Assembly (NCBI GenBank): GCA_050175015.1
Contig: JBFXJJ010000018.1
Location: forward strand, 1-43,748
Direction: 5' to 3'
Length of the DNA stretch: 43,748 nucleotides
From: Alphaproteobacteria bacterium
Lineage (GTDB): Bacteria; Pseudomonadota; Alphaproteobacteria; JBFXJJ01
Position numbers and translations under genes: made by a program. Below the pieces are notes generated by a model that had not been told where the DNA came from, ran no database searches, and saw only the letters and a list, made by a program, of their open reading frames with translations. Below are positions 4,188 through 20,433 of the stretch, in pieces (the stretch's first letter is position 1; the number at the start of each line of letters is the position of its first letter).

Positions 4188-6131
4188 TCATTCTGTGGCT
4201 AATGCTAAAACAGGATCTAATTTTGCAGCTTTGCGGGCAGGCAGAAAACCAAAAACTAATCCAGTCAAGAAAGCACAAGAAAAAGCTAAGGCTGCAGGCA
4301 TTACTGAAAAGACAACACTCATACCAAAACGCTCGGCAATTAAACCTGCAATCACTCCAAACAAAATACCTAAAACACCTCCAAGAGCAGAAACAACAGC
4401 GGCCTCAATATTAAATTGCAAAAATATGTCACGCATTCTGGCTCCAGTTGCCATTCTGATGCCAATTTCTTTGGTTCTTTCTGTTACACTAACGAGCATA
4501 ATATTCATAACACCGATACCGCCAACCAATAAGGATATTGCGGCAACAGCTGCCAGCAAGATCGTTAGGGTATCTTGAGCTGCGGTAACGGTATCTAAGA
4601 CAGATGACATATTGCGAACTTTAAAGTCTTCTTCTTGGTGGCGTTTGTTTAAAAGTTCAGTAATAGCATCTTGAGTGTCATTTATTGTGTCGACGTCAGT
4701 TACTCTAACCGTAATGGTATTTAAGTGGTTATTGCCGAATATTTTGGTAAGACCTGTCGTAACGGGAATCAGAATCATATCGTCTTGATCTCTTCCCATA
4801 GGGTTGGCGCCTTTTTCTTCCATAATGCCAATTACCTGGAACGGAATATTTTTGATAAGAATAAATTTGTTGATAGGGTCGTTTTCATAAGGAAATAGCG
4901 TATCTTTTATAGTTTTACCAATAACAGCGACGGTTGCATAAGAACTCATATCTCGTTTATTAAAGAAAAATCCCTGTTTAACGTCCCAGTCTTTGGCTTT
5001 AGGGAAGTCGGTGCTGACACCTTGGATAGATGTTTGATAATCAACATTACCATAACGAACAGTAGTTGTTGTGCTGCGTTCAGGTACAACAGCTTCAACA
5101 TTGGGGACTTCGGCTATTGCTTCGGCATCAGATATAACCAAGGTTACAATATCTCCAGAGCCTCTAAACCCAGGAAGACCAGGTCTTACCATAATCAAAT
5201 TAGTTCCCATTTCGCTGATTTTATCAACGATTTTTTGTTTACTGCCATCACCTATAGCAAGCATCGTTACAACTGCGGCTACTCCAATGATGATGCCAAG
5301 TAAAGTTAGAGCTGTGCGAAACAAATTGGCTTGTAAAGACTTGACGGCAATTCTTACAGCTTCATAAATGCTTTCTATTAGGCGACTTTCGGTTCTAGTT
5401 TTATCTTTGAAGGTTACGGCATTAAATGAGTTGTTTTCGTAAGTATTAGTGTCTTCAATGATTTTGCCGTCAGATATTTTTACCATACGTTTAGCGTGGC
5501 TCGCGATATTGATATCATGAGTAATGAGAACTATTGTGCGTCCTTCTTTGTTAAGCTGTTTGAGAAGAGTTAAAACATCTTCCCCGCTTTTGCTGTCAAG
5601 AGCGCCAGTTGGTTCATCGGCTAGAATAAGCGGAGGGTCATTAACTAATGCTCTAGCAATCGCTACCCTTTGCTGTTGACCGCCTGAGAGTTCGGAAGGA
5701 GTGTGTTCTGATCTTTCTTTAACGCCCAATTTATCGAGTAAATCAAGAGCGATAGATGAGCGTTCTTCTTTGGGAACTCCTGCATAAACAGAAGGCACTT
5801 CAACATTTTCTCTAGCATTAGATGTTGCTAAAAGATTATATCGTTGAAAGACAAAACCGAAGGTTTCGCGGCGTAATCTTGCTAATTCATCGACACTCAT
5901 TAATGAGGTTTCTTTTCCCGAAACAAAATATTTTCCTGAAGTTGGTTTATCAAGACAGCCAATAATATTCATCAGGGTTGATTTTCCCGAACCAGATTGT
6001 CCCATAATGGCAACAAACTCACCTTGGTGTATTGTTAAAGAGACCTTATTTAGGGCATATATCTTGTTATCGCCGTTTTGATAAATCTTAGTGATATTAT
6101 CAAGTTCCAGCAAAGGTTTTTGATTTGACAT
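4188..6131 (-). CDS. macB: MacB-family ABC transporter (ATPase-permease fusion)
   Basis: Walker A GQSGSGKS, LSGGQQQRVAIARAL, ILADEPTGALD, periplasmic domain, and FtsX-like C-terminus (GGIGVMNIMLVSVTERTKEIGIR). Confidence 0.93.
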   Translation of the reverse strand: MSNQKPLLELDNITKIYQNGDNKIYALNKVSLTIHQGEFVAIMGQSGSGKSTLMNIIGCLDKPTSGKYFVSGKETSLMSVDELARLRRETFGFVFQRYNLLATSNARENVEVPSVYAGVPKEERSSIALDLLDKLGVKERSEHTPSELSGGQQQRVAIARALVNDPPLILADEPTGALDSKSGEDVLTLLKQLNKEGRTIVLITHDINIASHAKRMVKISDGKIIEDTNTYENNSFNAVTFKDKTRTESRLIESIYEAVRIAVKSLQANLFRTALTLLGIIIGVAAVVTMLAIGDGSKQKIVDKISEMGTNLIMVRPGLPGFRGSGDIVTLVISDAEAIAEVPNVEAVVPERSTTTTVRYGNVDYQTSIQGVSTDFPKAKDWDVKQGFFFNKRDMSSYATVAVIGKTIKDTLFPYENDPINKFILIKNIPFQVIGIMEEKGANPMGRDQDDMILIPVTTGLTKIFGNNHLNTITVRVTDVDTINDTQDAITELLNKRHQEEDFKVRNMSSVLDTVTAAQDTLTILLAAVAAISLLVGGIGVMNIMLVSVTERTKEIGIRMATGARMRDIFLQFNIEAAVVSALGGVLGILFGVIAGLIAERFGMSVVFSVMPAALAFSCAFLTGLVFGFLPARKAAKLDPVLALATE

Positions 6132-7309
6132 TATAAGAATCCCGGAGGTGGCGGCATATTATCTTTGTTTTTGCTTTTTTCTCCTGAGGCTGCAGTTTTG
6201 CCATCTGCCAGTAAAACTTGATCCCCAACATTTAAGCCAGAAACAACTTGTGCTATGCTGCGATTGTTTAAACCAATGTTAATAATTCTTTCTACAGGTC
6301 TTCCATTTTCTAAAACCATTACCTTATAAGCAGTTGTATCATCAGTGTCTTTATCTTCAATATGATAAGTCAAAGTATCAGTTGAAATCATCGGAACATT
6401 TTCTGCTTTACCTATGACAAAGAAAACCTGTGTACTCATTCCTGTCATTAATTTGCGGTCTTTGTTATCAACGTCAATTAAGACATTATATAGAACAACT
6501 TCATTAACTATTTCTGGAGAAGGTTCAATCTGGCGAACTTTGCCGTACCATTTACGATTTTGCATACCAAGGGTAGTAAAATAAACGTCCATATTTTCAT
6601 TAATACGAGAGACATCTGCTTCTGCAACTTCAGCGATAACCGTCATTGTATCAAGATCTGCTACTTGAACAATAGTTGGAGCAGATTGGCTGGCGTTTAA
6701 AGTTTGTCCTTCTTTTGCTTCTTTTAATGCGATTATCCCTGACATAGGAGCATAGATTTTAGTATATCCAAGATTGGTGATGCTTTCAGATAAGTTAGAT
6801 TCCAGTTCCTCAATTTGAGCCTTAATTGATTCTAATTTAGAATAAGCAACATCTTTTTCTGATTCAATTTCTTCAAAGGTTTCTTGGCTAACATTGTTGG
6901 TTTCAAGGAGCCTTTTGTTTCTTTTATATTTACTTTCGGCAAGTTTGATGTTGGCATTTTGTTCAGATATTTGAGCTTTTAAAGATTTAAGTTTAGCTTT
7001 GTTAGCAAGAACTTGAGTTTCATAAACTCTAGGGTCTATCTCGGCTATGAGATCACCTTCTTTAACATAATCACCAATTTCGACGTGGAGTTTTTCTAAT
7101 TGGCCAGAAACTTGAGTTCCGACATCAACGTAATCTTTAGGTTCCAATGATCCTTGCGCGGTTACAAGTTCTTCAATGCTGCCGAGTGATACGGTGAATA
7201 TTTTTTGGCTAGGAGTTTTAGTCTCAACCTTTTTGGCACTAAATTTACTATATGCTGCAAAAGAAGCTATAATTAATATTAATAAAATAACCAGCGTTTT
7301 CTTTTTCAT
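6131..7309 (-). CDS. macA: MacA-family periplasmic adaptor (membrane fusion protein)
   Basis: N-terminal TM anchor, VDVGTQVSGQL lipoyl half-motif, coiled hairpin, YTKIYAPMSG, EGQTLNASQSAP; 1-nt overlap with macB. Confidence 0.9.
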   Translation of the reverse strand: MKKKTLVILLILIIASFAAYSKFSAKKVETKTPSQKIFTVSLGSIEELVTAQGSLEPKDYVDVGTQVSGQLEKLHVEIGDYVKEGDLIAEIDPRVYETQVLANKAKLKSLKAQISEQNANIKLAESKYKRNKRLLETNNVSQETFEEIESEKDVAYSKLESIKAQIEELESNLSESITNLGYTKIYAPMSGIIALKEAKEGQTLNASQSAPTIVQVADLDTMTVIAEVAEADVSRINENMDVYFTTLGMQNRKWYGKVRQIEPSPEIVNEVVLYNVLIDVDNKDRKLMTGMSTQVFFVIGKAENVPMISTDTLTYHIEDKDTDDTTAYKVMVLENGRPVERIINIGLNNRSIAQVVSGLNVGDQVLLADGKTAASGEKSKNKDNMPPPPGFL

Positions 7310-7351
7310 ATTTTTCTGCCCTTAATTTTATAATCATATAAAATATATTGA

Positions 7352-7413
7352 AGCATACTAAAGTATCAAAAATATTTCAAATCAAAGTAAGTTTTGTAAC
7401 AAATAGTAACAAA
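7352..7413 (-). promoter_or_regulatory. Putative macAB sigma70 promoter with upstream tandem repeat
   Basis: Minus strand TTGAAA (7380-7375)-17 nt-TATGCT (7357-7352); GTAACAAA direct repeat at 7396-7403 and 7406-7413. Confidence 0.45.
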
Positions 7414-7460
7414 ACGCCTAAGTATGTATAAAATTTAATCAGATTGTGAAAGTTTAAAAG

Positions 7461-9881
7461 TTAACGCTGTCTATTTTTCACATAAATTCTTGCAAGATTC
7501 TTGCTTATATTGTTTGCCTTGTTTTCGTTGGAATTAGCAGCTTTTTCTTCTAATTCTTTATGGCTTTCTTTATAATCAAGCCAAACTTTAACGTTTTCTA
7601 GCCAAGGATTGTAACGACCTTTTTCTGTGTTTTGTGCCCGTTCTTTTTTGGCATTTATAAGCTTGCTTGAAAGATCTATGGTCGGAATAGACAGACCGCA
7701 AAGATACATATTATCACCCGTATCTTTATAATCGAGACGCAGCCTTGATTGAATACTGCGGTCTATTTCTTGAGAACGTTTAGGATCAAGGTTGCCGGCA
7801 TATCCAACAGGCCTTGTGATGACAGGAACAGAAACATCTTTTTTGGTTTTTTCATCAAAGGCTAAAATGTAATTAGCAGGAAGCAAAACATTGTTATCAG
7901 CATCTTTTGCCAAGCGTAAAGGAGAAACAACACCTTGGTTTAAGGTATAAATATGTTTGTCGTAATCGTTGGCTCCTTGATAAAAAGGATCGCACAATTC
8001 GACTTGTTTTAGCCTTCTGCTGACTATGCCGTCAATAAAATCAACATTAAAATCAAATTTTATCATACCAGTATGTTCTTCAATTTTTTGTGATTCTTTG
8101 GCTAAAAAGAAGCCATCTTTGCGCCTAGCAGGATCTATTGGTGCCATAATTTCCATATCATAAGTTTTAAACTCAGAACCAAGATGGTTTAAAAAACAGT
8201 TGATAGCTTCAGCGTAACCATAATCATCATCTTTTAAGGCTGCAAAAATAGCATCTCCTAATTCTTGGTTCATTTTATCACGCTGCCAAACATCACATAA
8301 TAATTGTTTGGCTTGTGCGTGGTGTCTGCAATCACCTAATCCTAAAGCAAAGGTCGTTGTAATGCTTGTTGTGGAATCAGATGCTACTTTTTCATCGAAA
8401 GCCTCTTGTTTATTGCTGTTGCTTGGTCTGCCAATGCCGCTTAAAAAGGTAACAGCTTGAACGTGACGGTCATAATTATCATTATTTAAGGTTTCGATTC
8501 CTCTTTCTTCTGTAACAAAAGCAGATCTTACAATTTGGTCGGCAACATAAGAAAAAGTATTAGGGTCATTAATATTTCTAAGAGTTGTGTTTTTAAATTC
8601 TGGCATTTTAGCGAAGAATTTATCATCAATCAGCATTTCAACAGGAATATCTAATAATCTATTGAATTGTTCCCAATCAACGCGGCCAACAGAATGATCT
8701 GGAACTTGACCATTGAAGTTAAAATTTCCAGCAACGCTATTAGAAGTTATAAAACCATCAGGCAGGCTGCGATAATTAAAGGTCTTTTTATATAAAAGTT
8801 CTTCAGCAGTTAGCTCATTGTCAGTTTTTGCATCTTTCATAACAGTTAAAACGTCATTGTTAGTTTTTGTAATATCAGTAGAATTAGTAAAAAGCTTTTG
8901 AATTACAGCTTCTACCAATTCAGTTTTCTGATTTTGAGCTAATAATAGACTGCGTACGTTTGCTAATTCATAAAAAGTGATTCGTCTTTGATAGTAAGTT
9001 GCCGGAGTCTCTTTTAGCTTGTTAACAAAATCGTCAGCTTTTCTCGCTGGAACACCGGCAAGACAAGCGGCTAAGGTCATGGTCTCTGCTCTTTGATAAT
9101 CTGCAAGCTCAAGTCCTCCATGCTTCTCGCATACTAAAAGAGTTAATTCTGCAAATTGTTCAGCCCGAGTGCTTTGTCCAAGCTCTGCATATAGCATTGC
9201 GGTTTTCAAACCTGCTGAGCTGTCCATATTTTTTCTAAAACCTTTTTGGAAGCTGATTAAAGAACGAATCTTAGCTTTTTTTCCGTTCGCTTCAATTTCT
9301 GTTAAATTCTCATCGTTAGGGAAATTTTGAAGATATCTTTTTTTAGCGCTTTTGATTTGTCCTTCAGAGGAATGTCCTAAAGCAAAAAGAAGAGCCTCAG
9401 CTGATGTTGCTTTCATATACCAAGCTGAGCCCTCAATATTGTGGCGTAAATATCTTCCGTCGTTTCCTTTAGTAATTAATTGCCGGCACATATCAATAGC
9501 TTCATTATATTTTCCAAAGCGGCAATATGCATTCGCAACATTTTCCATACCAACAGGAGAATTTCTAAATTGTTCGTTATTACACATCTCATAAATTTTT
9601 ATAATGGAGTTAAAGTCTCCTAATTCACGAAATTTATGAGTTAAAAGTATAAGAGATTGGGTGTTTAAATTGTTGAGACCTTTGGTTCTAAAAACAAATT
9701 CTCTCAAACCAGAACGCACTCTTTTTTCTGGCAATTCTAAGATAGTTTTCAATTCTTTTCGGAATTTGCGATCACTGATGTGAGAAGCCGCATTTTGACG
9801 GCGTGCATGGTCAAAATCAATGCCTCTTTTTTTGCCATCTAAATTCAAACCGATAAATTCTGGTGCGTTATTTGAAGACAT
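7461..9881 (-). CDS. 806-aa uncharacterised protein: TPR-S/DUF4071-like helical N-terminus plus putative papain/transglutaminase-like (EDR1-like) C-terminal domain
   Basis: Long uninterrupted ORF. TPR-like helices (ANAYCRFGKYNEAIDMCRQL; AGLKTAMLYAELG). LGLGDCRHHAQAKQLLCD, EEH and LCDPFY motifs. Coding status is secure; function is inferred. Confidence 0.6.
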   Translation of the reverse strand: MSSNNAPEFIGLNLDGKKRGIDFDHARRQNAASHISDRKFRKELKTILELPEKRVRSGLREFVFRTKGLNNLNTQSLILLTHKFRELGDFNSIIKIYEMCNNEQFRNSPVGMENVANAYCRFGKYNEAIDMCRQLITKGNDGRYLRHNIEGSAWYMKATSAEALLFALGHSSEGQIKSAKKRYLQNFPNDENLTEIEANGKKAKIRSLISFQKGFRKNMDSSAGLKTAMLYAELGQSTRAEQFAELTLLVCEKHGGLELADYQRAETMTLAACLAGVPARKADDFVNKLKETPATYYQRRITFYELANVRSLLLAQNQKTELVEAVIQKLFTNSTDITKTNNDVLTVMKDAKTDNELTAEELLYKKTFNYRSLPDGFITSNSVAGNFNFNGQVPDHSVGRVDWEQFNRLLDIPVEMLIDDKFFAKMPEFKNTTLRNINDPNTFSYVADQIVRSAFVTEERGIETLNNDNYDRHVQAVTFLSGIGRPSNSNKQEAFDEKVASDSTTSITTTFALGLGDCRHHAQAKQLLCDVWQRDKMNQELGDAIFAALKDDDYGYAEAINCFLNHLGSEFKTYDMEIMAPIDPARRKDGFFLAKESQKIEEHTGMIKFDFNVDFIDGIVSRRLKQVELCDPFYQGANDYDKHIYTLNQGVVSPLRLAKDADNNVLLPANYILAFDEKTKKDVSVPVITRPVGYAGNLDPKRSQEIDRSIQSRLRLDYKDTGDNMYLCGLSIPTIDLSSKLINAKKERAQNTEKGRYNPWLENVKVWLDYKESHKELEEKAANSNENKANNISKNLARIYVKNRQR

Positions 9882-10104
9882 ATGTTTTAAAACCTTAGAA
9901 ACGATTTAACTTTTTAATTGAAATAAACTACTTTTTATTAAAGCTCAATCACATTTAAAAAGCAAGACTTTTTTGTCAAAATAGTCTAAAAATAAATAAA
10001 AATATTTTATCAAATATGTATAGTGTAAAAAGGGTTGATTTATATATGGTTATGACCATAAAATCCCCCTTAGAATTGTTAATAATAAATAATGAGAATG
10101 ACAA

Positions 10105-10644
10105 ATGGCATTATTAAAAATTGTAGAGCTTCCAGATCCTCTTTTGAAAAAAAAGAGCAAACCTATTGCGGTTATAGATGAAGAAATAAAAAAATTAGCA
10201 AGTGATATGCTCGAAACTATGTACTTTGAGGTTGGTGTTGGTCTTGCGGCTCCTCAGGTTGGGGTTTTAAAAAGAATCATTGTAATGGATCCTTATCACG
10301 AAGATAAGCCTGACAGAGCAATAGTTATGGTTAATCCTGAGATTATTGAAAAATCAGAGGAAACAGTTTTTTGCAATGAGGGTTGTCTCTCGGTTCCTGA
10401 TTATCAAGCAGAGGTGAAGCGTCCAGAAAAAGTTCGTGTAAAGTGGCAGGACTTAGACGGTGTTGAACATAATGAGCTTTTAGATAATTTTGCGGCTAGA
10501 GTAGTACAGCACGAAATAGATCATCTTAATGGTGTATTATTTATAGATAGAATCTCTAGAATTAAGCGCAGTATGATTACGAAAAAAATGCAAAAAAAAT
10601 CTCAAAATCAAGATGAGCAAGATTCAGATTTAGGAATTGAATGA
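10105..10644 (+). CDS. def: Peptide deformylase
   Basis: GVGLAAPQVG, EGCLS and QHEIDHLNG motifs. Confidence 0.97.
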   Translation: MALLKIVELPDPLLKKKSKPIAVIDEEIKKLASDMLETMYFEVGVGLAAPQVGVLKRIIVMDPYHEDKPDRAIVMVNPEIIEKSEETVFCNEGCLSVPDYQAEVKRPEKVRVKWQDLDGVEHNELLDNFAARVVQHEIDHLNGVLFIDRISRIKRSMITKKMQKKSQNQDEQDSDLGIE

Positions 10645-11567
10645 TGGTGAAACTGAGGGTTGTTTTTATGGGAACGCCTGATTTCTCTGTCCCTGTACTT
10701 GAGGCAGTGGCTAGAAAGTATGATGTCGTTTGTGTCTATTCCCAGCCTCCGCGTCCCGCAGGCAGAGGGCAAAAGCTTATGAAATCACCCGTTCATCAAA
10801 AAGCAGAAGAGCTAGGAATAATGGTTCGTTGTCCGCTTTCTTTGAAAAGTGTTGAGGAACAGCAGCTGTTGTCCAATTTAAAAGCCGATATTTCTGTTGT
10901 GGCAGCTTATGGTATGATTTTACCAGAAGCTGTAATAAGTATTTTTTCTTATGGCTGTATTAATGTCCATGCGTCACTTTTGCCTAGATGGCGTGGAGCT
11001 AGTCCTATTCAAAGTTCGATTATGGCAGGAGATAAAAAAAGCGGTATTTCCATAATGAAAATAGTTAAGGCGCTTGATGCTGGTGATGTTCTTTTGCAAA
11101 AAGAAGTTGTTATCACAAAAGAAGAAACCGCAGAAACTTTGCACGATAAGTTATCTTGTGCGGGGGCTAATGCTATTATTGAAGGGTTGTCTCTAATTGC
11201 GGAAGGTAATGCAGTTTTTAAACCGCAAGATGAGTCTTTAGTTACTTATGCGACTAAAATTAATAAAGAAGATGCTAAAATAGATTTTTCTCAAGATGCA
11301 AGCATTATTGAACAAAAGATTAGGGCATATAATCCTGCTCCAGGTGCTTGGTTTTTATTAGATGGCAACCGCATTAAAATTAATCTGGCGGAAGTTATCG
11401 AGTATAATGGAGAAAAGCCGTTCGGTACTATAATTGATAACAAGATGACTATTGCCTGCGGCAAAAATGCCTTATCTATCTTGAAGTTGCAAAAAGCAGG
11501 CAAATCAGTGATGAAAATAGATGACTTTTTAAGAGGTCTCAAAGAAATGCCAAGCAGAGTTGATTAG
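10641..11567 (+). CDS. fmt: Methionyl-tRNA formyltransferase
   Basis: FMGTPDF, SQPPRPAGRG, VVAAYG, INVHASLLPRWRGASPI and LDAGD motifs; follows def. Confidence 0.97.
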   Translation: MMVKLRVVFMGTPDFSVPVLEAVARKYDVVCVYSQPPRPAGRGQKLMKSPVHQKAEELGIMVRCPLSLKSVEEQQLLSNLKADISVVAAYGMILPEAVISIFSYGCINVHASLLPRWRGASPIQSSIMAGDKKSGISIMKIVKALDAGDVLLQKEVVITKEETAETLHDKLSCAGANAIIEGLSLIAEGNAVFKPQDESLVTYATKINKEDAKIDFSQDASIIEQKIRAYNPAPGAWFLLDGNRIKINLAEVIEYNGEKPFGTIIDNKMTIACGKNALSILKLQKAGKSVMKIDDFLRGLKEMPSRVD

Positions 11568-11570
11568 AAA

Positions 11571-12311
11571 ATGCGCAGGATTAAGCTCAAGATTGAATAT
11601 GATGGAACATCTTTAGTTGGCTGGCAAGCGCAAAACAACGGGGTTTCGGTTCAATCATTGGTCGAAGATGCGATTAAGGGGTTTAGCGGAGAAACGGTTA
11701 GTCTTTTTGGTGCAGGTCGAACAGACGCTGGAGTTCATGCTTTAGGGCAAGTCGCGCATTTTGATTTAGCAAAAGAAAATATTGCGGCAGAAAAAATTAA
11801 ATATGCAATTAATGCTCATCTTAAAAACAAACCAGTTGTAATTTTAGAGTCTGAAGAAACTAATTCCGATTTTCACGCTAGATTTTCAGCAAAATGGAGG
11901 AAATATCGTTATATAATATCGAATCGCAGCGTTCCTCTGGTTATTAATGAAAACAGAGCTTGGTGGGTTCCTCAATGGTTAGATGAAAGCAAAATATTTG
12001 AAGCTTCACAGTTCCTTGTTGGGAAACACGATTTTTCTAGTTTTAGAGCTGCGGAATGTCAGGCAAAAAGCCCAATTAAAACGCTTGACTATATTACCGT
12101 AGAAAGAGAAAGCGAAAATATAATTATAGAGGTTAAAGCCAGATCATTTTTACATCATATGGTTAGAAATATTGTCGGCACGTTAAAGTTGGTTGGGCAA
12201 GAAAAGTTATCGCCAGAAGATGTGAATCTAATTCTAGAAGCGAGGGATAGGAAGCGAGCTGGCGCAACGGCTCCAGCTTCAGGGCTTTATTTTTTAGAGG
12301 TGGGATATTAA
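11571..12311 (+). CDS. truA: tRNA pseudouridine(38-40) synthase
   Basis: EYDGT..GWQ, GAGRTDAGVHALGQVAHFD, FHARFSA, GKHDFSSFR and SFLHHMVRNIVG motifs. Confidence 0.97.
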   Translation: MRRIKLKIEYDGTSLVGWQAQNNGVSVQSLVEDAIKGFSGETVSLFGAGRTDAGVHALGQVAHFDLAKENIAAEKIKYAINAHLKNKPVVILESEETNSDFHARFSAKWRKYRYIISNRSVPLVINENRAWWVPQWLDESKIFEASQFLVGKHDFSSFRAAECQAKSPIKTLDYITVERESENIIIEVKARSFLHHMVRNIVGTLKLVGQEKLSPEDVNLILEARDRKRAGATAPASGLYFLEVGY

Positions 12312-12418
12312 TTTTTTTAATTTTAATTAAATTGTTGTTTTTTTTGCAATATAGATTAAGATATGGTGTCTATAAATTAAATTGTAGCGCTTTATTTAAT
12401 ATTTAAGGGTTTAAACTA

Positions 12419-12850
12419 ATGTCAATAATGCTCGAAGGTGAATACGCCATTTTAGTTAATGATGACGATGAAGTTATGATTTCAATGGCTAGTAAGTTAA
12501 ATGATCCTGAGAACCCTAGAATAATTTACGATGGCGGCGACCATGCCCTTTATTATCGTACACCATTAGAAACAATCCTACTTGATTATATTAATCCAGA
12601 AGTTCGTGAAGCGTTGCAAAAAGTTAAAATTTTACTCGTAGCTGAAGTTGAAATTGACGAAGAAAGAAGAGATGGTGAGGTTATAAGAGCTTTTGATGTT
12701 CCTTTGCAAATGGTTAAAAAACTTCCACTTTCAGGCGAACTTGCTCATCTTCCTACTATCGACGAGCTTTTTGATAAAATTGAAGCAGAAATAGATATGA
12801 TTGCTGAAGAAGAAGAAATTGATAGGCTTGCCGAATTAGAAGGTGACTGA
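12419..12850 (+). CDS. Acidic hypothetical protein
   Basis: 143-aa ORF with protein-like composition, its own intergenic upstream region and a terminator downstream; no family recognised. Confidence 0.7.
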   Translation: MSIMLEGEYAILVNDDDEVMISMASKLNDPENPRIIYDGGDHALYYRTPLETILLDYINPEVREALQKVKILLVAEVEIDEERRDGEVIRAFDVPLQMVKKLPLSGELAHLPTIDELFDKIEAEIDMIAEEEEIDRLAELEGD

Positions 12851-12878
12851 TTGTATTCATATTCTTTCAAATAATTAT

Positions 12879-12910
12879 AAGCCAGCATCAAAAGCTGGCT
12901 TTTTATTTTT
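12879..12910 (+). terminator. Rho-independent terminator
   Basis: AAGCCAGC-7 nt-GCTGGCTT followed by a T-rich tract. Confidence 0.7.
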
Positions 12911-12937
12911 GACTAAAGTCAAAGAATAAATTACAAA
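12908..12937 (+). promoter_or_regulatory. Palindromic operator overlapping the putative suf promoter -35
   Basis: TTTGACT-AA-AGTCAAA (12908-12923); TTGACT (12909-12914)-17 nt-TACAAA (12932-12937). Confidence 0.45.
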
Positions 12938-12990
12938 AGACATTATATTGATAACAACCTAATGTAAATTTCTCAAAAAAAGGTCTTATA

Positions 12991-14442
12991 ATGGTAAAAG
13001 AAGAAACTGAAAACACAATAAAAAAAATTTCAGAAGATTCTTATAAATACGGCTTTGTAACAGATATTAAAGCAGAGACTATAGGCAAGGGTCTATCTGA
13101 AGAAGTTGTCGCTCTAATTTCATCTAAAAATGATGAACCATCGTGGCTTTTGGATTGGCGTATTAAGGCGTATCGTTTTTGGCTTTCTTTGGAAGAGCCG
13201 ACTTGGTCAAAGCTTAAATATCCTAAAATAAACTATCAAGATATTCATTACTATTCATCTCCAGTCAAAAAAGGCATTAAGAGCTTGGACGAAGCCGATC
13301 CAGAGCTTCTTAAGACATATGAAAAGTTAGGGATTCCTCTTAAAGAGCAAGAAGTTTTAGCAGGCGTTGTAGCGGTTGATGCTGTTTTTGACAGTGTTTC
13401 GGTTGCCACAACATATAAAGAGAAACTCAAAGAAAAGGGTGTAGTTTTTTGCCCTATTTCTGAGGCGGCTAGAGAATATCCTGAGCTTCTACAAAAATAT
13501 TTAGGTTCAGTTGTGCCTTATACTGATAATTTTTTTGCTTGTTTAAATTCTGCGGTTTATAGCGATGGCTCGTTTGTATATATTCCAAAAAATGTAAGAT
13601 GTCCTATGGAGCTTTCAACGTATTTTCGTATTAACGAAAAAAATACAGGGCAGTTTGAAAGAACCTTAATTGTAGCCGAAGATAATTCTTATGTTAGTTA
13701 TTTAGAAGGTTGTACGGCTCCTCAGCGAGATGAGAATCAACTTCACGCTGCTGTAGTTGAAATTGTTGCTATGAATAACGCTGAAGTTAAATACTCTACG
13801 GTTCAAAATTGGTATCCTGGAGATAAGGACGGAAAAGGCGGAATTTATAACTTTGTAACTAAAAGAGGGGCTTGTCGAGGAGATGATTCCAAAATCTCTT
13901 GGACACAGGTTGAGACAGGCTCAGCGATTACTTGGAAATATCCCAGCTGCATTTTACAAGGCAAAAATTCTGTTGGTGAATTCTATTCAGTTGCAATCAC
14001 GAATAATTACCAGCAAGCAGATACTGGAACCAAAATGATTCATATTGGAGAAAATTCATCATCAACGATTGTTGCCAAAAGTATTGCGTCAGGTTTTTCT
14101 GATAACACCTATCGTGGTTTAGTCAGAATTTCTCCTAATGCTAAAAATGCTAAAAATAATTCTAAATGTGATAATTTATTGATAGGTGAAACTTGCGGGG
14201 CGCATACGGTTCCTTATATTGAAAATCGTAATGCTCAAGCAACTGTAGAGCATGAAGCAACAACATCTAAAATCAGTGAAGAACAGCTTTTTTATTGCCG
14301 TCAAAGAGGGATTGCTGAAGAAGAAGCGGTGTCATTGATTGTTAATGGTTTTTGTAAAGAAGTTATGCAGAAACTGCCTATGGAATTTGCCATAGAAGCA
14401 GCTAGATTAGTTAATATCAGCCTCGAAGGCAGTATAGGTTAA
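12991..14442 (+). CDS. sufB: Fe-S cluster assembly protein SufB
   Basis: [59 protein letters not shown] and TWKYPS motifs. Confidence 0.98.
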
Positions 14443-14455
14443 AGGATTTTAGAAA

Positions 14456-15199
14456 ATGTCTTTTTTAGAAATAGTTGATTTACATGCCAGTATTGACGGT
14501 AAAGAAATTTTAAAAGGTTTTAACCTCACTATTAATCAGGGTGAAGTTCATGCCATTATGGGACCTAATGGTTCGGGCAAAAGCACGTTGTCCTACGTTA
14601 TAGCAGGCAGACCTGGTTATGAGGTAACAAAAGGCAGAGTTTTGTTTAAAGGTCAGGACTTATTGGCTATGCCAGTTGAGGAACGAGCGAGAGAAGGTAT
14701 TTTTCTTGCTTTTCAATATCCTGTAGAAATTCCAGGGGTTGCTACGGCAGTTTTTTTAAAACACGCCTTAAATGCTGTTCGCAAACATCGGGGTGATGAA
14801 GAGCTTGATACTATGACTTTCATTAAAATAATGAAAGAAAAAGCAGGAGAACTAGGTATTAATCAAGATTTAGTTAAAAGATTTCTCAATGTGGGATTTT
14901 CTGGCGGAGAAAAAAAACGGGTAGAAACTTTGCAGATGTCTATTTTAGAGCCAAGTTTTGCGATATTAGACGAGATGGATTCAGGACTTGATATTGATGC
15001 CTTAAAAGTTGTTTCTGAAGGTGTTAATACTTTGCGTAGCCCAGAGCGCTCGATGCTTGTTATTACTCACTATCAAAGACTTTTGAATTATATTGTTCCT
15101 GACTATGTCCACGTTTTGGCTGGAGGAAAAATAGTTAAATCCGGCAATAAAAATTTAGCTCTGGAATTAGAAGAGCACGGCTATGGCGAATTCGTTTAA
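14456..15199 (+). CDS. sufC: Fe-S cluster assembly ATPase SufC
   Basis: GPNGSGKST, FLAFQYPVEIPGV, GFSGGEKKR, DSGLDIDAL and ITHYQRLL motifs. Confidence 0.98.
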   Translation: MSFLEIVDLHASIDGKEILKGFNLTINQGEVHAIMGPNGSGKSTLSYVIAGRPGYEVTKGRVLFKGQDLLAMPVEERAREGIFLAFQYPVEIPGVATAVFLKHALNAVRKHRGDEELDTMTFIKIMKEKAGELGINQDLVKRFLNVGFSGGEKKRVETLQMSILEPSFAILDEMDSGLDIDALKVVSEGVNTLRSPERSMLVITHYQRLLNYIVPDYVHVLAGGKIVKSGNKNLALELEEHGYGEFV

Positions 15200-15211
15200 G
15201 GAAGGCTTAAA

Positions 15212-16525
15212 ATGAATCTTAATTTAACTGCAAAACAGCCATTTTTAGATGATTATGAAGCGTCCTTTCCTAATATGGTGGGGGCTAAGCATAATTGGCT
15301 TTCTGCAATTAGAAAAAATGGTCTTCAGGCTTATAGCAATCACGGTATCAATTTAGAAAAAATAGAAAATTGGCATTATACGAAGCTGAAATTTTTAAAA
15401 ACGATTAACTTTGTTAAATCAAATGTTAAATCTAAAATTAAATTACCTGAAATTACAGATGTTAATGCCAGCTATGTTGCCGTTGTAGTAAACGGCAAAT
15501 TTAGAGATGATTTAAGTTTTGGAGATGTTCCTAAAGGCATTAAAATTTTTTCTTTAGCAAGCGTGTTAGAAAATGATACTCCAGATTGGATTTCAGAAAT
15601 ATTGGCTAAACAGGTCGATATGCAGAATGCCTCACTTGCGGCTTTGAATACTGCTTGGCTTGAAGACGGCTATGTTATAGATGTTATGCCTAATGTGTCG
15701 TTGAAAAAACCAATATTGATTTTGATGTTAAATGATGCGGGCAAAGAACCTTCGGCAATCTATACCCGAGGTTTAGTAAGGTTAGGGAAAAATGCTCATA
15801 TTAAGATTATTGAAGAGCATAGCCCCGTTGTAGAAAAAATTTGTTTTGTTAATGCGGTTACGGAGTTGGTGCTTAGTGAAGACGCCAAGCTTGGTTATTA
15901 TAAAAGAGTTAAAGGCAGCAGCGAAGCTTATCATATAGGATTTGTAGGAGCTATGGTTCTCAAAAATGCTGAATTAGAAAGCTTTATTATGCAAAATAAT
16001 GCAGCGTTATCTCGCTCGGAATATAATGTTAACCTTGCAGGTGAAGGTGCTAAGGCTGTCGTTAATGGTGCATATATGGGTGCAGAGCATCAAATTTCAG
16101 ATATTACCTGCTGTATTGAGCATAATGCCTCATATACTTGTTCGGATCAGATAATCAGAGGTTTGGTTGCAGGTGATTCCAAAGCAGTATTTCAAGGAAA
16201 AATTTTCGTAAATCGTGGTACGGCTAAGGTTGATGGCAATCAAAATCACAAAGCTCTTCTGCTTTCTAAAAATGCTGAGGTTGACTGCAAACCAGAGTTA
16301 GAAATTTATGCTGATGATGTTAAATGTTCTCACGGAGCGACGACAGGTTTTTTAGATAAAGATGCAATGTTTTATCTAAGAGCAAGAGGCGTTTCAGAAA
16401 ATGATGCTCAAAAAATGTTGGCGGCAGCTTTTTTGAAAGATGCTATCAGTACGATAAAAGATGACAATATCATTGACTATTTTGAGAAAAATTTAGAAAA
16501 GTGGCTGGACAATAATTTGTTATGA
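15212..16525 (+). CDS. sufD: Fe-S cluster assembly protein SufD
   Basis: ENWHYT, VFQGKIFV, KPELEIYADDVKCSHGAT and FYLRARG motifs; position in the operon. Confidence 0.95.
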   Translation: MNLNLTAKQPFLDDYEASFPNMVGAKHNWLSAIRKNGLQAYSNHGINLEKIENWHYTKLKFLKTINFVKSNVKSKIKLPEITDVNASYVAVVVNGKFRDDLSFGDVPKGIKIFSLASVLENDTPDWISEILAKQVDMQNASLAALNTAWLEDGYVIDVMPNVSLKKPILILMLNDAGKEPSAIYTRGLVRLGKNAHIKIIEEHSPVVEKICFVNAVTELVLSEDAKLGYYKRVKGSSEAYHIGFVGAMVLKNAELESFIMQNNAALSRSEYNVNLAGEGAKAVVNGAYMGAEHQISDITCCIEHNASYTCSDQIIRGLVAGDSKAVFQGKIFVNRGTAKVDGNQNHKALLLSKNAEVDCKPELEIYADDVKCSHGATTGFLDKDAMFYLRARGVSENDAQKMLAAAFLKDAISTIKDDNIIDYFEKNLEKWLDNNLL

Positions 16526-17748
16526 CAAACTCTGACTTAGATCCTTATAAAATTAAAAAAGATTTTCCTGTTTTTGAGCAAGAAAACGGCAAAAAACCAT
16601 TGATATTTCTTGATTCTGCGGCATCTGCTCAAAAGCCAAAAGTTGTTATTGAGCGGTTAAAAAGTTTTTATGAGACAGAATATGCCAATGTTCACCGAGG
16701 GATTTACCAGCTTTCTGATAAAGCCACAACCGAATATGAGAAAGCGAGAACAACTGTTGCCTCATTTCTAGGAGCAGAAAGTTCTAAAGAGATTATATTT
16801 ACACGAAATGCGACTGAGGCAATTAACCTCGTTGCCGCAACTTATGGCAGAAAATTTTTAAATGAGGGTGATGAAATTATAGTTTCTGAAGCCGAACATC
16901 ACGCTAATCTTGTTCCATGGCAGCAGTTAAGAGATGAAAAAAAACTTAAATTAACGGTTTTACCGATTGCTGATGATGGCAGTTATATTGATGGTTCTTT
17001 AGAAAAAATAATTTCTAACAAGACTAAACTTGTTGCCATAACCCAGATGTCTAATGTCCTTGGTTCTATTTTTCCTGTTAAAAAAATAGCAGAAACAGCT
17101 CACAGCTTTGGAGCTAAAATCCTAATAGATGGGTGCCAAGCTGCGGTTCACCTGCCGATTGATGTGAGAGATCTAAACTGCGATTTTTATGTTTTTTCAG
17201 GGCATAAAACGTACGGACCTTCGGGCATAGGGGTGCTTTACGGGAAATATAATATTTTGGAAGAAATGCCGCCTTATCAATACGGTGGAGATATGGTCGC
17301 ATCAGTTTCTTATGAAACCGCATCTTTTCATAATGCTCCAGCAAGATTTGAAGCGGGAACGCCAGCAATAGCTCAGGCGGTTGGTTTGGGCGCAGCATTA
17401 GAATATATGGAAAAATTAGACCGCAGTAAAATTGCGACATACGAAACCGATTTAGTGCAATATGCTATGGCAAAACTCCAAACGATTAAAGAGTTTATAC
17501 CAATCGGTACGGCTAAAAATAAGAGCGGAGTAGTAACCTTTGTCATTGATAAAATTCATTCCAATGATATTGCAACTTTACTTGACCAAATGGGAATAGC
17601 TGTTCGAACAGGGCATCACTGTGCTGAACCCCTTATCAGAAGAATGGGACATAATTCTACTATAAGGGCATCTTTTGCAGTTTATAATACTAGAGAAGAT
17701 GTTGATGCCCTTTATAATGGACTTGTTAAAGCGATAAGCTTTTTTTAA
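16522..17748 (+). CDS. sufS: Cysteine desulfurase SufS
   Basis: LDSAASAQKP, ANVHRG, EHHANLVPWQ, FSGHK (PLP lysine), FEAGTP and RTGHHCA motifs. Confidence 0.97.
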   Translation: MTNSDLDPYKIKKDFPVFEQENGKKPLIFLDSAASAQKPKVVIERLKSFYETEYANVHRGIYQLSDKATTEYEKARTTVASFLGAESSKEIIFTRNATEAINLVAATYGRKFLNEGDEIIVSEAEHHANLVPWQQLRDEKKLKLTVLPIADDGSYIDGSLEKIISNKTKLVAITQMSNVLGSIFPVKKIAETAHSFGAKILIDGCQAAVHLPIDVRDLNCDFYVFSGHKTYGPSGIGVLYGKYNILEEMPPYQYGGDMVASVSYETASFHNAPARFEAGTPAIAQAVGLGAALEYMEKLDRSKIATYETDLVQYAMAKLQTIKEFIPIGTAKNKSGVVTFVIDKIHSNDIATLLDQMGIAVRTGHHCAEPLIRRMGHNSTIRASFAVYNTREDVDALYNGLVKAISFF

Positions 17749-17761
17749 TAAAGGAAGACAA

Positions 17762-18127
17762 ATGTCAGAAACAGATAAAGAATATCAATATACTGCGGGA
17801 AAACCTTTGGAAGATAAGAGCAAGATTGCATCGGAAGAAGAGGTTATAGAAGCAATTAAGTTGGTAGAAGATCCTGAGTTATTACTTAATGTATATGATA
17901 TGGGATTAATTTATAGCCTTGATATTGATAACAACGGCGATGTAAAGATAGATATGACTTTGACGGCTCCAAATTGCCCCGTTGCTGAAGATTTACCAAT
18001 AAGGGTTGTTGAATCTGTTGCCTCTCTTCCTTCTATAGGAATTGCTATGCTGCGATTAGTATGGGAGCCAGAGTGGACGCCGGAGAGGCTTTCAGAAGAA
18101 GCTCGTATGATGATAGAAATTTTTTAA
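17762..18127 (+). CDS. sufT: SufT/DUF59 Fe-S cluster assembly protein
   Basis: DPEL..NVYDMGLIY, MTLTAPNCPVA and LVWEPEWT motifs. Confidence 0.9.
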   Translation: MSETDKEYQYTAGKPLEDKSKIASEEEVIEAIKLVEDPELLLNVYDMGLIYSLDIDNNGDVKIDMTLTAPNCPVAEDLPIRVVESVASLPSIGIAMLRLVWEPEWTPERLSEEARMMIEIF

Positions 18128-18142
18128 GGTGAAGTGTTTTCG

Positions 18143-18559
18143 ATGGATATTGAAGAATTAAAAGAAAATTTTGAATTTCTTGATGATTGGGAAGACAGGT
18201 ATCGTTATCTTCTAGACCTAGGAGCAAAGCTTCCGCCAATGGCAGAAGAAGAAAAAAATGAAACCAACAAAGTTAATGGCTGTACTAGTCAGGTATGGAT
18301 TAAAAGCAGCGTTAAGGAAGACGAAAAAAATCAGAAAACAATAGATTTTGTTGCTGACAGTGATGCTCATATTGTCAGAGGACTGATTGCTATTGTGAGA
18401 GTTCTTTTTATTGGCAAAACTTTTGAAGAAATAAAAACAATCGACGAAGAACAATTTTTTACTGATTTAGGACTTCACAACCATTTATCACCAAGCCGTC
18501 GTAATGGGCTTGCTGCTATGGTGGAAAAAATTAAATCTGATGCCGCAAATATGATTTAA
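18143..18559 (+). CDS. sufE: Sulfur acceptor SufE
   Basis: DWEDRYRYLLDLG, VNGCTSQVW, DSDAHIVRGL and LSPSRRNGL motifs. ATG 18143 preferred over GTG 18134 given the AAGGTGA RBS spacing. Confidence 0.93.
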   Translation: MDIEELKENFEFLDDWEDRYRYLLDLGAKLPPMAEEEKNETNKVNGCTSQVWIKSSVKEDEKNQKTIDFVADSDAHIVRGLIAIVRVLFIGKTFEEIKTIDEEQFFTDLGLHNHLSPSRRNGLAAMVEKIKSDAANMI

Positions 18560-18584
18560 GCCATATAGCTAAACTTAAATAATC

Positions 18585-19067
18585 TTAGTTATCTAATTTT
18601 AATAAAGAATCGATATCAAGTACAATCATTAGCTCTTTTTCTAATCTGATAACACCAGCAGAAATACTGCGCCATTTATGGTTTAGAGTTGAAGGATTCG
18701 GCTCAATCTTATCAGGGTTAAGAGAAATCACAGTACCAACATCATCAACCATAAGGCTATATAATTCATTGCCTAATTCGACGGTTGTACACATTCTGTT
18801 GGATTCATTAGAATCAGCAAGACCTAAGCGTTTTCTCACATCGATTACGGTAACAATCCTGCCTCTAAGATTGATAGCGCCCGCTACTTCCTTCGGTGCG
18901 AGAGGTATATTTGCAATTCTTTCAGGAATAAGAATATCCTGAACTTTTTCTACTGGAATGCCAAAGAGTTGTTTTTCAACATAAACAGTTACAAAAACCT
19001 GCTCTACAACAAGATGTTTTGGTAAAGCCGGCCTTTTAGAAGTTGTAGTTGCAAGTTCATTGCCCAT
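18585..19067 (-). CDS. cheW: Chemotaxis coupling protein CheW (orphan)
   Basis: FGIPVEKVQDI, IPLAP..VAGAINLRGRIVTVID and LMVDDVG motifs. Confidence 0.93.
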   Translation of the reverse strand: MGNELATTTSKRPALPKHLVVEQVFVTVYVEKQLFGIPVEKVQDILIPERIANIPLAPKEVAGAINLRGRIVTVIDVRKRLGLADSNESNRMCTTVELGNELYSLMVDDVGTVISLNPDKIEPNPSTLNHKWRSISAGVIRLEKELMIVLDIDSLLKLDN

Positions 19068-19233
19068 GAGTTTAGTCCTTAAAGCGTTTTTAAAAATATA
19101 ATTTAAACTGGATTATTGTAAAAAAAAATAAAAAAATCAAATTCTTTTGAAAGAGTTGCAAATTATCTTTAACGCTATAAACTAAAGACGACTTAAAAGA
19201 TATAAGAAAACTTAACAGACTAAGGAAAATTTT

Positions 19234-20433
19234 ATGAATATTCATGAATATCAAGCTAAAAAGCTGTTGTCAGGTTATGGCGTCGATGTTCTTAAAGGCG
19301 GCGTAGCTTATAATGCTGAAGAAGCAGTTCGTGTTGCTCAAGAAATTGAAGGCAATATTTGGGTGGTTAAAGCTCAAATTCACGCAGGAGGAAGAGGTAA
19401 AGGCAAGTTTATTGAAGAAAAAGCTGGTACAGGCGGCGGGGTTCGTTTGGCTAAAGCAATAGAAGATGTCTCAAATAATACTAAGCAAATGCTTGGTTCT
19501 ACATTGGTAACGCATCAAAGTGGGGCAGAAGGGCGCAGAGTTAAAAGAGTTTATATTGAAGAAGGCTGTGCTATTAAAAAAGAGCTTTATTTGGGAATGC
19601 TTGTTGACCGCAAATCATCTTGTATAACCGTTGTGGCATCTACTGAAGGCGGTGTCGAAATAGAAAAGGTTGCGGCTGAAACCCCCGAAAAAATCATCAG
19701 ACAAGAAATTGATGCTGTTGTTGGAATGAGTTCTTTTTATGCTCGAAAAATAGCTTTTGGTTTGGGGTTGAAGGGTAAGCAGGTTAATTATGCCGTCAAA
19801 TTCTTAACTTCAATGTATAAGGCTTTTATTGAGCTTGATGCTTCTATGATAGAAATTAACCCTTTAGTTGTTACCGAAGATGATAGGCTTATCGCTCTTG
19901 ATGCTAAAATGAATTTTGATGATAACTCACTTTTCCGTCAGAAAGAAATTGAAGAGTTAAGAGATGAAGACGAAGAAGATAAAAGAGAAATAGAAGCCTC
20001 TAAATACGGTTTAAGTTATGTCAGCTTATTCGGTAATATTGGCTGTATGGTTAATGGTGCTGGTTTGGCTATGGCAACTATGGATATTATTAAATATTAT
20101 GGTGGCGATCCCGCAAATTTCCTTGATGTTGGTGGCGGAGCAACCAAAGAAAAGGTTTGTGAAGCATTCAAAATTATCTTATCAGACCCAAAGGTTGAAG
20201 CTATCTTAGTTAATATTTTTGGTGGAATTATGCGCTGCAATATTATTGCAGAAGGGGTTGTCGCCGCAGCTAAAGAAATCGAATTAAAAGTTCCATTGGT
20301 AGTTAGATTAGAAGGTACTAATGTCAATTTAGGTAAACAGATTTTAAGTGAATCTGGCCTGCCTATTATTACAGCTGACAATCTTGAAGATGCAGCTAAA
20401 AAGGCCGTTCAAGCTGTTAAGGAGAAAGCATAA
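19234..20433 (+). CDS. sucC: Succinyl-CoA synthetase beta subunit
   Basis: [51 protein letters not shown] and NIFGGIMRC motifs. Confidence 0.98.

Follow-up and report, generated by a model that had tools for sequence, protein, structure and literature searches.

What might a bacterium do with a single protein that joins a repeat domain like the one regulating ASK1, a human stress kinase, to what appears to be a thiol enzyme of a previously unclassified family? The question is raised by a gene on contig JBFXJJ010000018.1 of an alphaproteobacterial genome (assembly GCA_050175015.1, called G000 below; 2.53 Mb in 49 contigs, 99.4% complete). The whole stretch analysed, positions 1 to 43,748 of this contig, is referred to as the window. 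An open reading frame (ORF) of 806 codons runs without interruption along the minus strand at 7461..9881, ending with a stop codon at 7461-7463. With the base composition of the window, a stop-free run of this length would arise by chance with a probability of about 5e-27. The coding sequence is documented by the ORF list and its translation, by 143 HMMER matches that include the protein itself and by a full-length AlphaFold2 (AF2) model. An earlier interpretation made from the DNA alone (the sequence-only reading) had placed the ORF at this position, leaving its strand unstated. All of the motifs quoted in that reading were found, and its residue numbering proved correct when compared with the codons of Cys518, His603 and Asp631. 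Judging from its sequence, which contains neither a signal peptide nor a membrane segment (maximum 19-residue hydropathy 0.83), the protein appears to be cytoplasmic in character.

A divergent ASK1-type repeat domain

The N-terminal half of the protein is a divergent ASK1-type TPR-S (PF20308)/MAP3K_TRAF_bd (PF13281, formerly DUF4071) domain, in agreement with the TPR-S/DUF4071-like sensor proposed earlier. Since the protein's own sequence is sub-threshold, the assignment was made from collinear homologues and from the match of the family profile. Alignments of 51 family members (A1), 71 sequences (A2) and 22 rows (A5) were used. At E<=0.01, 21 of the 51 A1 members match PF20308 (best E 1.5e-17) and 19 match PF13281 (best E 8.8e-17). 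Among 15 long homologues scanned at E<=1e-3, TPR-S was found in 10, MAP3K_TRAF_bd in 6 and no family in 5. When 16 homologues were re-scanned for coordinates, six matched and ten did not, both nearest relatives being among the six. One of these (P0002) scores 29.9 bits against TPR-S (curated cut-off 27.6) and the other (P0003) 33.7 bits against MAP3K_TRAF_bd (curated cut-off 24.1), the latter match mapping to residues 77-306. Mapped through A1, the PF20308 matches in P0002, P0003, P0013, P0028 and P0037 run from residue 89, 90 or 111 to residue 188, 229 or 230, which places a TPR-S core at residues 90-230 (9192..9614, minus strand). The MAP3K_TRAF_bd matches of the homologues map, by the same route, to residues 28-317 (8931..9800, minus strand), an all-helical repeat domain that encloses the TPR-S core and contains the N-terminal motifs noted in the sequence-only reading.

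The A1 profile matched the ASK1 central regulatory region (5ulm_A, E 1.1e-8; 8qgy_A, E 7.7e-8) in a single stretch of 270 columns, whereas designed consensus tetratricopeptide repeats (TPRs) were matched in repeated short stretches only. ASK1 was also the top structural match of the repeat domain. By fold, the ASK1 region is a better match than generic TPR proteins. In the full-length model (mean predicted local distance difference test score, pLDDT, 88.8; predicted template modelling score, pTM, 0.91) residues 23-332 are all-helical, and a low-confidence linker (residues 336-350, pLDDT below 50; 8832..8876, minus strand) lies between the two halves. In ASK1 (MAP3K5) the repeat domain is joined to a kinase; here it is joined to the putative thiol enzyme.

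A candidate Cys-His-Asp enzyme at the C-terminus

The evidence supports the identification of the C-terminal half as a Cys-His-Asp thiol enzyme that represents a previously unclassified family in the transglutaminase/arylamine N-acetyltransferase (NAT)/papain-like fold group. The domain comprises residues 359-735 (7677..8807, minus strand) and, from the model and its structural matches, would stand as a branch of its own, not yet classified, in the transglutaminase/NAT fold group. The three residues singled out in the sequence-only reading as a papain- or transglutaminase-like triad are invariant or nearly so. Cys518 (codon at 8328..8330, minus strand), the predicted nucleophile in the motif G-L-G-D-C-R-H-H-A, is conserved in 51 of 51 sequences of A1, in all 70 non-gap rows of A2 and in 22 of 22 rows of A5. 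The corresponding figures for His603 (8073..8075, minus strand; motif E-E-H-T), the predicted general base, are 51/51, 71/71 and 22/22. Asp631 (7989..7991, minus strand; motif D-P-F-Y), the predicted third member of the triad, is found in 49 of 51 sequences of A1 (the other two have Cys), in 70 of 71 of A2 and in 22 of 22 of A5. Residues R452, E463, G516, D517, R519, Q526, E601, F633, Y634 and G729 are likewise invariant in A1; all of these except G516 are specific to the family when it is compared with transglutaminase-like enzymes and NATs.

Residues 350-806 were also modelled separately with the 71-sequence alignment (pLDDT 88.1, pTM 0.89). In both models a helix of 32 residues (518-549) begins with Cys518. 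According to DSSP, His603 lies inside strand 592-616 and Asp631 two residues past strand 619-629. The two strands are adjacent and antiparallel, separated by a two-residue turn (617-618), and the register of this hairpin pairs residue 603 with approximately residue 632, so that Asp631 is predicted to face His603 across it.

Structural comparison of the domain returned, nearly exclusively, transglutaminase, NAT or thiol-peptidase folds. The matches included nine transglutaminase-type or related thiol enzymes, among them TglA (Z 6.7), TG2, TG3 and FXIII (Z 6.0-6.1), LapG (Z 5.9), a transglutaminase (TGase), protein 4.2 and a putative cysteine protease, as well as two axonemal chains; Ceg10, vasohibins, PNGase/Rad4, TgpA, PeiP/PeiW, SpvD and RavJ occupied lower rows. 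Each Z score taken alone is below the tool's caution line, and the result draws its weight from the near-exclusive recurrence of one fold group.

Other searches did not place the domain in a named family. A PDB sequence search with the family profile gave no match to the C-terminal domain, and Pfam searches at E<=10 with 22 C-terminal domains of diverse lineages yielded no recurrent family in any of the 22 and no PF01841 (Transglut_core) match. Foldseek searches with the domain model returned unrelated folds from the PDB (best E 7e-3) and a best E of 1.5e-2 from BFVD. In the ESM Atlas, scores reached at most 0.78 and structure template modelling (TM) scores at most 0.26; one cluster there, with DUF553 on 13% of its members, is a weak lead only. 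The sole NCBIfam match to the 806-aa protein scored 15.7 bits against a cut-off of 1200 and was disregarded. The domain differs from TG2, TG3, FXIII, TglA, LapG/C93, the PeiW/PeiP C71 peptidases and the NATs in having no Pfam match of that group at E<=10 and in the separation of Cys from His, which is about 85 residues and takes in two helices.

The domain is followed by residues 737-806 (7464..7673, minus strand), which are predicted to form three helices (737-750, 759-783 and 786-805 in the full-length model) and constitute a net basic tail (16 K+R versus 10 D+E).

Relationship to the EDR1 domain

The sequence-only reading had also linked the Cys helix to the EDR1/CTR1/ARMC3 peptidase-like domain. 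The likeness of the motifs is real on inspection of the sequences, G-D-C-R-H-H-A-Q-x-K-Q-L-L-x-D here as against G-V-C-R-H-R-S-L-L-F-K-x-L-A-D in bacterial EDR1 domains, but membership of that family, or a special relationship with it, is unproven. PF14381 matched none of the 22 C-terminal domains at E<=10 and gave no match in G000, where four candidates were scored; within the phylum it is present in 3 of 401 genomes, in two of them above the cut-off. For profile comparisons, 204 EDR1 proteins were gathered and alignments of 3 domains (A3) and 67 proteins (A4) were made. With hhalign, only the Cys helix aligned in the comparisons A2-A3 (P 0.034, probability 1.5%), A5-A3 (P 0.049, probability 1.1%) and A5-A4 (P 0.27, probability 0.2%), the aligned regions spanning just 19-28 columns; A2-A4 aligned an unrelated segment (P 0.33). 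The resemblance of the Cys helices is therefore not significant. The distance from Cys to His differs as well, being about 34 residues in EDR1 (C134 and H168 in A4) and 85 here. Membership was set aside as unproven on the PF14381 results for the 22 domains and the genome and on the range of hhalign P values (0.034-0.33).

It is nonetheless plausible that EDR1 and the present family share the same broad fold group, since many EDR1 proteins carry precomputed PF01841 matches and since a 2023 classification (PMC10318531) describes a high similarity of EDR1 to the C71 and C93 peptidases. On a reading that we consider improbable, in which the C-terminal domain is a distant sister of EDR1/CTR1, regulatory modules from two eukaryotic mitogen-activated protein kinase kinase kinase (MAP3K) lineages, ASK (through TPR-S) and CTR1/EDR1, would be combined in a single bacterial protein. 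Such a kinship would suggest a prokaryotic origin for a coupled sensor and peptidase-like unit that was later joined to MAP3K kinases.

A model for the action of the protein

The gene encodes a protein of two modules, cytoplasmic in character, in which a repeat domain (residues ~28-335) is connected to a putative thiol enzyme (residues ~359-735) that would operate through a Cys518-His603-Asp631 triad. The pTM of the full-length model implies that the two halves hold a fixed position relative to each other, and rigid packing of the TPR-S module on the enzyme is predicted. Cys518 would attack a carbonyl group to form a thioester (acyl-enzyme) intermediate. The outcome might be cleavage of a peptide or isopeptide bond, deamidation of glutamine, transamidation or cross-linking, or acyl transfer, and the target would most likely be a protein. 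The TPR-S module may select this target or, alternatively, gate the active site on binding a ligand or a protein. We consider the chances to be slightly better than even that this general description is right, namely a Cys-His-Asp enzyme under TPR-S control whose substrate is most likely a protein.

A number of points weigh against this interpretation. The N-terminus of the 806-aa protein falls below every Pfam cut-off, giving only sub-threshold matches to TPR_7 (25 bits) and TPR_10 (24 bits) at residues 112-140, and a PF20308 search of the whole of G000 returned no match. Neither domain of the protein is recognised by Pfam, NCBIfam or PADLOC. The convergence of Cys518, His603 and Asp631 in space is predicted only, from secondary-structure positions and the hairpin register, and gating by the TPR-S module is conjectural. 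Furthermore, NAT and transglutaminase structural matches are tied, the former suggesting acyl-CoA transfer to a small molecule and the latter protein modification. In an alternative reading the protein would be an acyl-CoA-dependent N-acyltransferase or amide synthase which acts on a small molecule by NAT-like chemistry and uses the repeat domain as a scaffold; this seems to us quite unlikely.

Searches of the literature turned up no paper describing the TPR-S domain or the C-terminal enzyme domain. Among the matches listed, those for DUF4071 concerned eukaryotic ASK kinases, C. elegans Tribbles and an Arcobacter plasmid, and those for the combination of transglutaminase-like, anti-phage and TPR concerned unrelated HEPN work only. 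A passage search of eLife 2020 e52696 found no mention of ASK1, MAP3K or EDR1.

Rarity and spread of the family

The protein had been described as an orphan. Word-indexed searches, whether with the protein or with A1, agree with this in having returned the query alone; an exhaustive HMMER search, run against 1.84 billion cluster representatives, does not. At E<=1e-3 it retrieved 143 proteins including the query, each standing for a cluster, of which 96 remained at E<=1e-10 and 40 at E<=1e-30. The best non-self matches are 30-31% identical across residues 23-701. The protein family is real, rare and uncharacterised.

A scan of genome contigs for loci related to the single protein confirmed 0 of 64 pattern matches. 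When pattern and tblastn searches were combined and applied to one genome per species, 34 family loci were found. Twenty-two are in alphaproteobacterial metagenome-assembled genomes (MAGs), several of which carry a rumen or gut label, and four are in Chlamydiae. A Clostridia MAG, Altimarinota, Obscuribacterales, a Methanosarcinales archaeon, Levybacteria (candidate phyla radiation, CPR), a deltaproteobacterium and Myxococcales contribute one locus each. The last locus (L021) is on a contig binned as Limosilactobacillus gorillae. Its synteny, a P-type ATPase and a TolC-like gene as in alphaproteobacterial loci, indicates that it was probably mis-binned; as it shows only pieces of 102-230 aa and no long family ORF, the gene may be broken or misread. 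Scanning of metagenomes added 27 loci, mainly from the same alphaproteobacterial clade, and on viral contigs 0 of 27 pattern matches were confirmed. The gene is present in only one of 60 class-level relatives of G000; these share only the class with G000 and were each taken from a different family.

There is one full copy of the gene per genome in each of five genomes checked. G000 contains, in addition, a 219-aa ORF on the minus strand of contig C4 (G000:C4:197542-198162; 1450-2109 in locus L002 and 11492-12151 in locus L054) that is 45% identical by sequence match to residues 563-771. This ORF keeps the His/Asp region and, in part, the basic C-terminal tail, and the Cys part is missing. It has a CN_hydrolase gene on one side and, on the other, the DDE_3 and HTH ORFs of an IS630-like transposase; a relaxase gene and a NikA-like gene follow after about 2 kb. 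The loss of the Cys part and the proximity of transposase and relaxase genes identify it as a truncated copy in a mobile-element setting. At metagenomic locus L056, too, the homologue has a CN_hydrolase gene next to it. Partial paralogues in tandem are present at loci L010, L029 and L031.

Some homologues are giant proteins in which the unit of TPR-S and Cys-His-Asp domains is accompanied by NUDIX, HATPase_c, HD, FAD/NAD-binding or FHA domains: P0098 (4995 aa), P0031 (2529 aa), P0057 (2787 aa) and P0122 (4515 aa). In five further long homologues Pfam recognises no family at all.

Genomic context and possible biological settings

Host or competitor manipulation, intracellular conflict and stress signalling are possible settings for the protein. 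Only two neighbours recurred when the neighbouring genes were clustered: 16 genome loci have a divergent P-type cation ATPase, and 10 have a TolC-like protein. As both are confined to a related alphaproteobacterial group, they reflect synteny among kin. Pfam annotation of two sets of neighbours (126 and 26 proteins) revealed mostly housekeeping genes. The description of the gene as standing alone is thereby upheld: it has no conserved partner, and its recurrent neighbours are housekeeping genes of related gut alphaproteobacterial MAGs.

Some further genes were seen near homologues at individual loci. A DUF6782 putative metallopeptidase (H-E-x-x-H) follows the homologue in five alphaproteobacterial loci (L013; L014, 12439-13581; L016; L019, 12360-13505; L028), and Transglut_core proteins are found near homologues in L008 and L037. 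Ankyrin genes lie near the homologue in L005 and L025, and in the ~2.5 Mb of G000 itself about 13 ORFs contain 27 Ank_2 matches between them. In L035, a Gp49/HTH pair is present besides a NUDIX gene.

A 2020 paper in J Bacteriol reportedly predicted a sensor role for TPR-S domains in conflict systems based on NAD or nucleotides, and the sequence-only reading, citing the occurrence of the domain in nucleotide-signalling conflict systems, had offered an anti-phage sensor-effector as one of two options, the other being a host-directed effector. The protein could be imagined as a Thoeris-like anti-phage effector in which the TPR-S module senses an NAD-derived signal made by a TIR protein or a cyclase, for instance cyclic ADP-ribose (cADPR), and releases the thiol enzyme, with death or arrest of the infected cell as the result. 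The patchy spread of the family across phyla, the paralogous fragment beside an IS element and a relaxase, and the NUDIX, HD, HATPase_c or FHA domains of some giant homologues would fit such a role. So would the NAD- or ADP-ribose-related neighbours at a few loci: NUDIX in L035, an ADP-ribosylglycohydrolase in L025, and NrtR-like, QRPTase and NAD synthase genes in L033. A further argument comes from ThsI, the type VIII Thoeris effector, which consists of a CMP hydrolase and a TPR and is activated by cADPR, the TPR being its presumed, not demonstrated, sensor (bioRxiv 10.64898/2025.12.03.692087). Experimental backing for TPR-S/ASK1-type repeats as the sensors of bacterial immune effectors is just beginning to appear. 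The present protein resembles ThsI in combining a TPR module, the presumed sensor, with an enzymatic effector in one polypeptide.

The differences from ThsI are in the effector, which has a Cys-His-Asp fold in place of the CMP hydrolase, and in the surroundings, there being no adjacent TIR gene as in type VIII Thoeris. No TIR domain was found among 126 neighbour proteins of 18 loci at E<=1e-5, nor among 26 neighbours of 6 loci at E<=1e-3, that is, in 152 proteins of 24 loci altogether, and G000 gave no match to TIR_2, ThsB_TIR, TIR or CAP12-PCTIR_TIR. Against PADLOC-DB 2.0 the 806-aa protein matched no family at E<=1, and the 126 neighbours gave generic helicase, kinase, ankyrin and methyltransferase matches only, with no complete system and no defence island. 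Further points against a defence role are the housekeeping genes around the gene in the window (macAB, def, fmt, truA and suf), the syntenic position by the P-type ATPase in 16 loci of one clade, which is unlike that of typical defence cargo, and the failure to find the gene on viral contigs. The genomic context thus argues against a TIR-coupled circuit, and lends no support either to the suggestion that the enzyme is ligand-gated. Because no TIR or other signal-producing gene accompanies the family, we regard the Thoeris-like interpretation as improbable. We give still less credence to a self-contained, TIR-independent "signalosome", in which the ASK1-type TPR-S module would sense a stress signal or a host or invader molecule (such as an NAD-derived nucleotide beyond the bacterium's own synthetic capacity) and switch on a new class of thiol protein-modifying enzyme.

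In the chlamydial locus L007, a gene for a CesT-family type III secretion chaperone (11171-11677, plus strand; E 4.7e-31) is situated directly downstream of the homologue (8246-10795, plus strand). The scanned neighbours at the other three chlamydial loci include no CesT chaperone. The only VirB4-like ATPase of G000 (831 aa) belongs to a gene cluster at 8404-19680 of locus L053 (G000:C9:8000-27999) and lies near TcpQ-like, secretin and PilO-like genes, in a layout that we take to be that of a conjugation system or a type IVb pilus; a 978-aa ORF without any family is located near the ATPase gene.

The protein might also be a secreted effector directed against a eukaryotic host or a neighbouring cell, its ASK1-like repeat binding a host protein and its thiol enzyme modifying it, in the manner of the transglutaminase-like and papain-like effectors of Legionella. 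However, the family extends to a Methanosarcinales archaeon, Levybacteria, Myxococcales, a deltaproteobacterium and Obscuribacterales, the protein has no recognisable secretion signal, and a CesT chaperone is found at just one of the four chlamydial loci. In G000, the single VirB4-like ATPase sits, by our reading of the gene layout, with pilus- or conjugation-type genes, and the gene occurs in one copy per genome rather than as an expanded effector family. We view a secreted effector as unlikely.

The fusion of sensor repeat domains to effector enzymes is already known; what is new here is an enzyme domain that lies outside all Pfam, NCBIfam and PADLOC models and comes without the usual signal-generating partner gene. 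At present the TPR-S-controlled Cys-His-Asp enzyme stands as a well-supported annotation of an uncharacterised family and not as a demonstrated new mechanism. Knowledge of the ligand of the repeat domain and of the substrate of the Cys-His-Asp domain would define a new enzyme family, would test whether TPR-S can function without TIR partners and might reveal the ancestry of the equivalent region of human ASK1.

The gene within the window

The gene lies between macA and def, as the sequence-only reading had indicated. On one side is a macA-like gene of the HlyD family (6131-7309, minus strand), identified by gene calling and Pfam, which shares the orientation of the 806-aa gene and is followed by macB and genes for a flavin reductase and a nitroreductase. 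On the other side, def (10105-10644, plus strand; gene call and Pfam), fmt and truA are transcribed divergently from the 806-aa gene, and the suf cluster comes next. The spacer of 151 nt between the 806-aa gene and macA (7310..7460, minus strand) contains promoter-like sites and no minus-strand terminator-like site, and co-transcription of the gene with macAB is possible. A functional tie to macAB, which the TolC-like gene found after the homologue in 10 related loci had brought to mind, was set aside on two grounds: these loci are closely related to one another, and pumps of the MacB type are not known to export proteins of the cytoplasm. The G+C content of the gene, 35.9% compared with 37.9% for the window, reveals no compositional anomaly. 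A 143-aa ORF without a Pfam family at E<=0.01 is located between truA and sufB (12419-12850, plus strand). Finally, the window contains at 38598-43744 a complete rRNA operon comprising 16S, two spacer tRNAs, 23S, 5S and one more tRNA.

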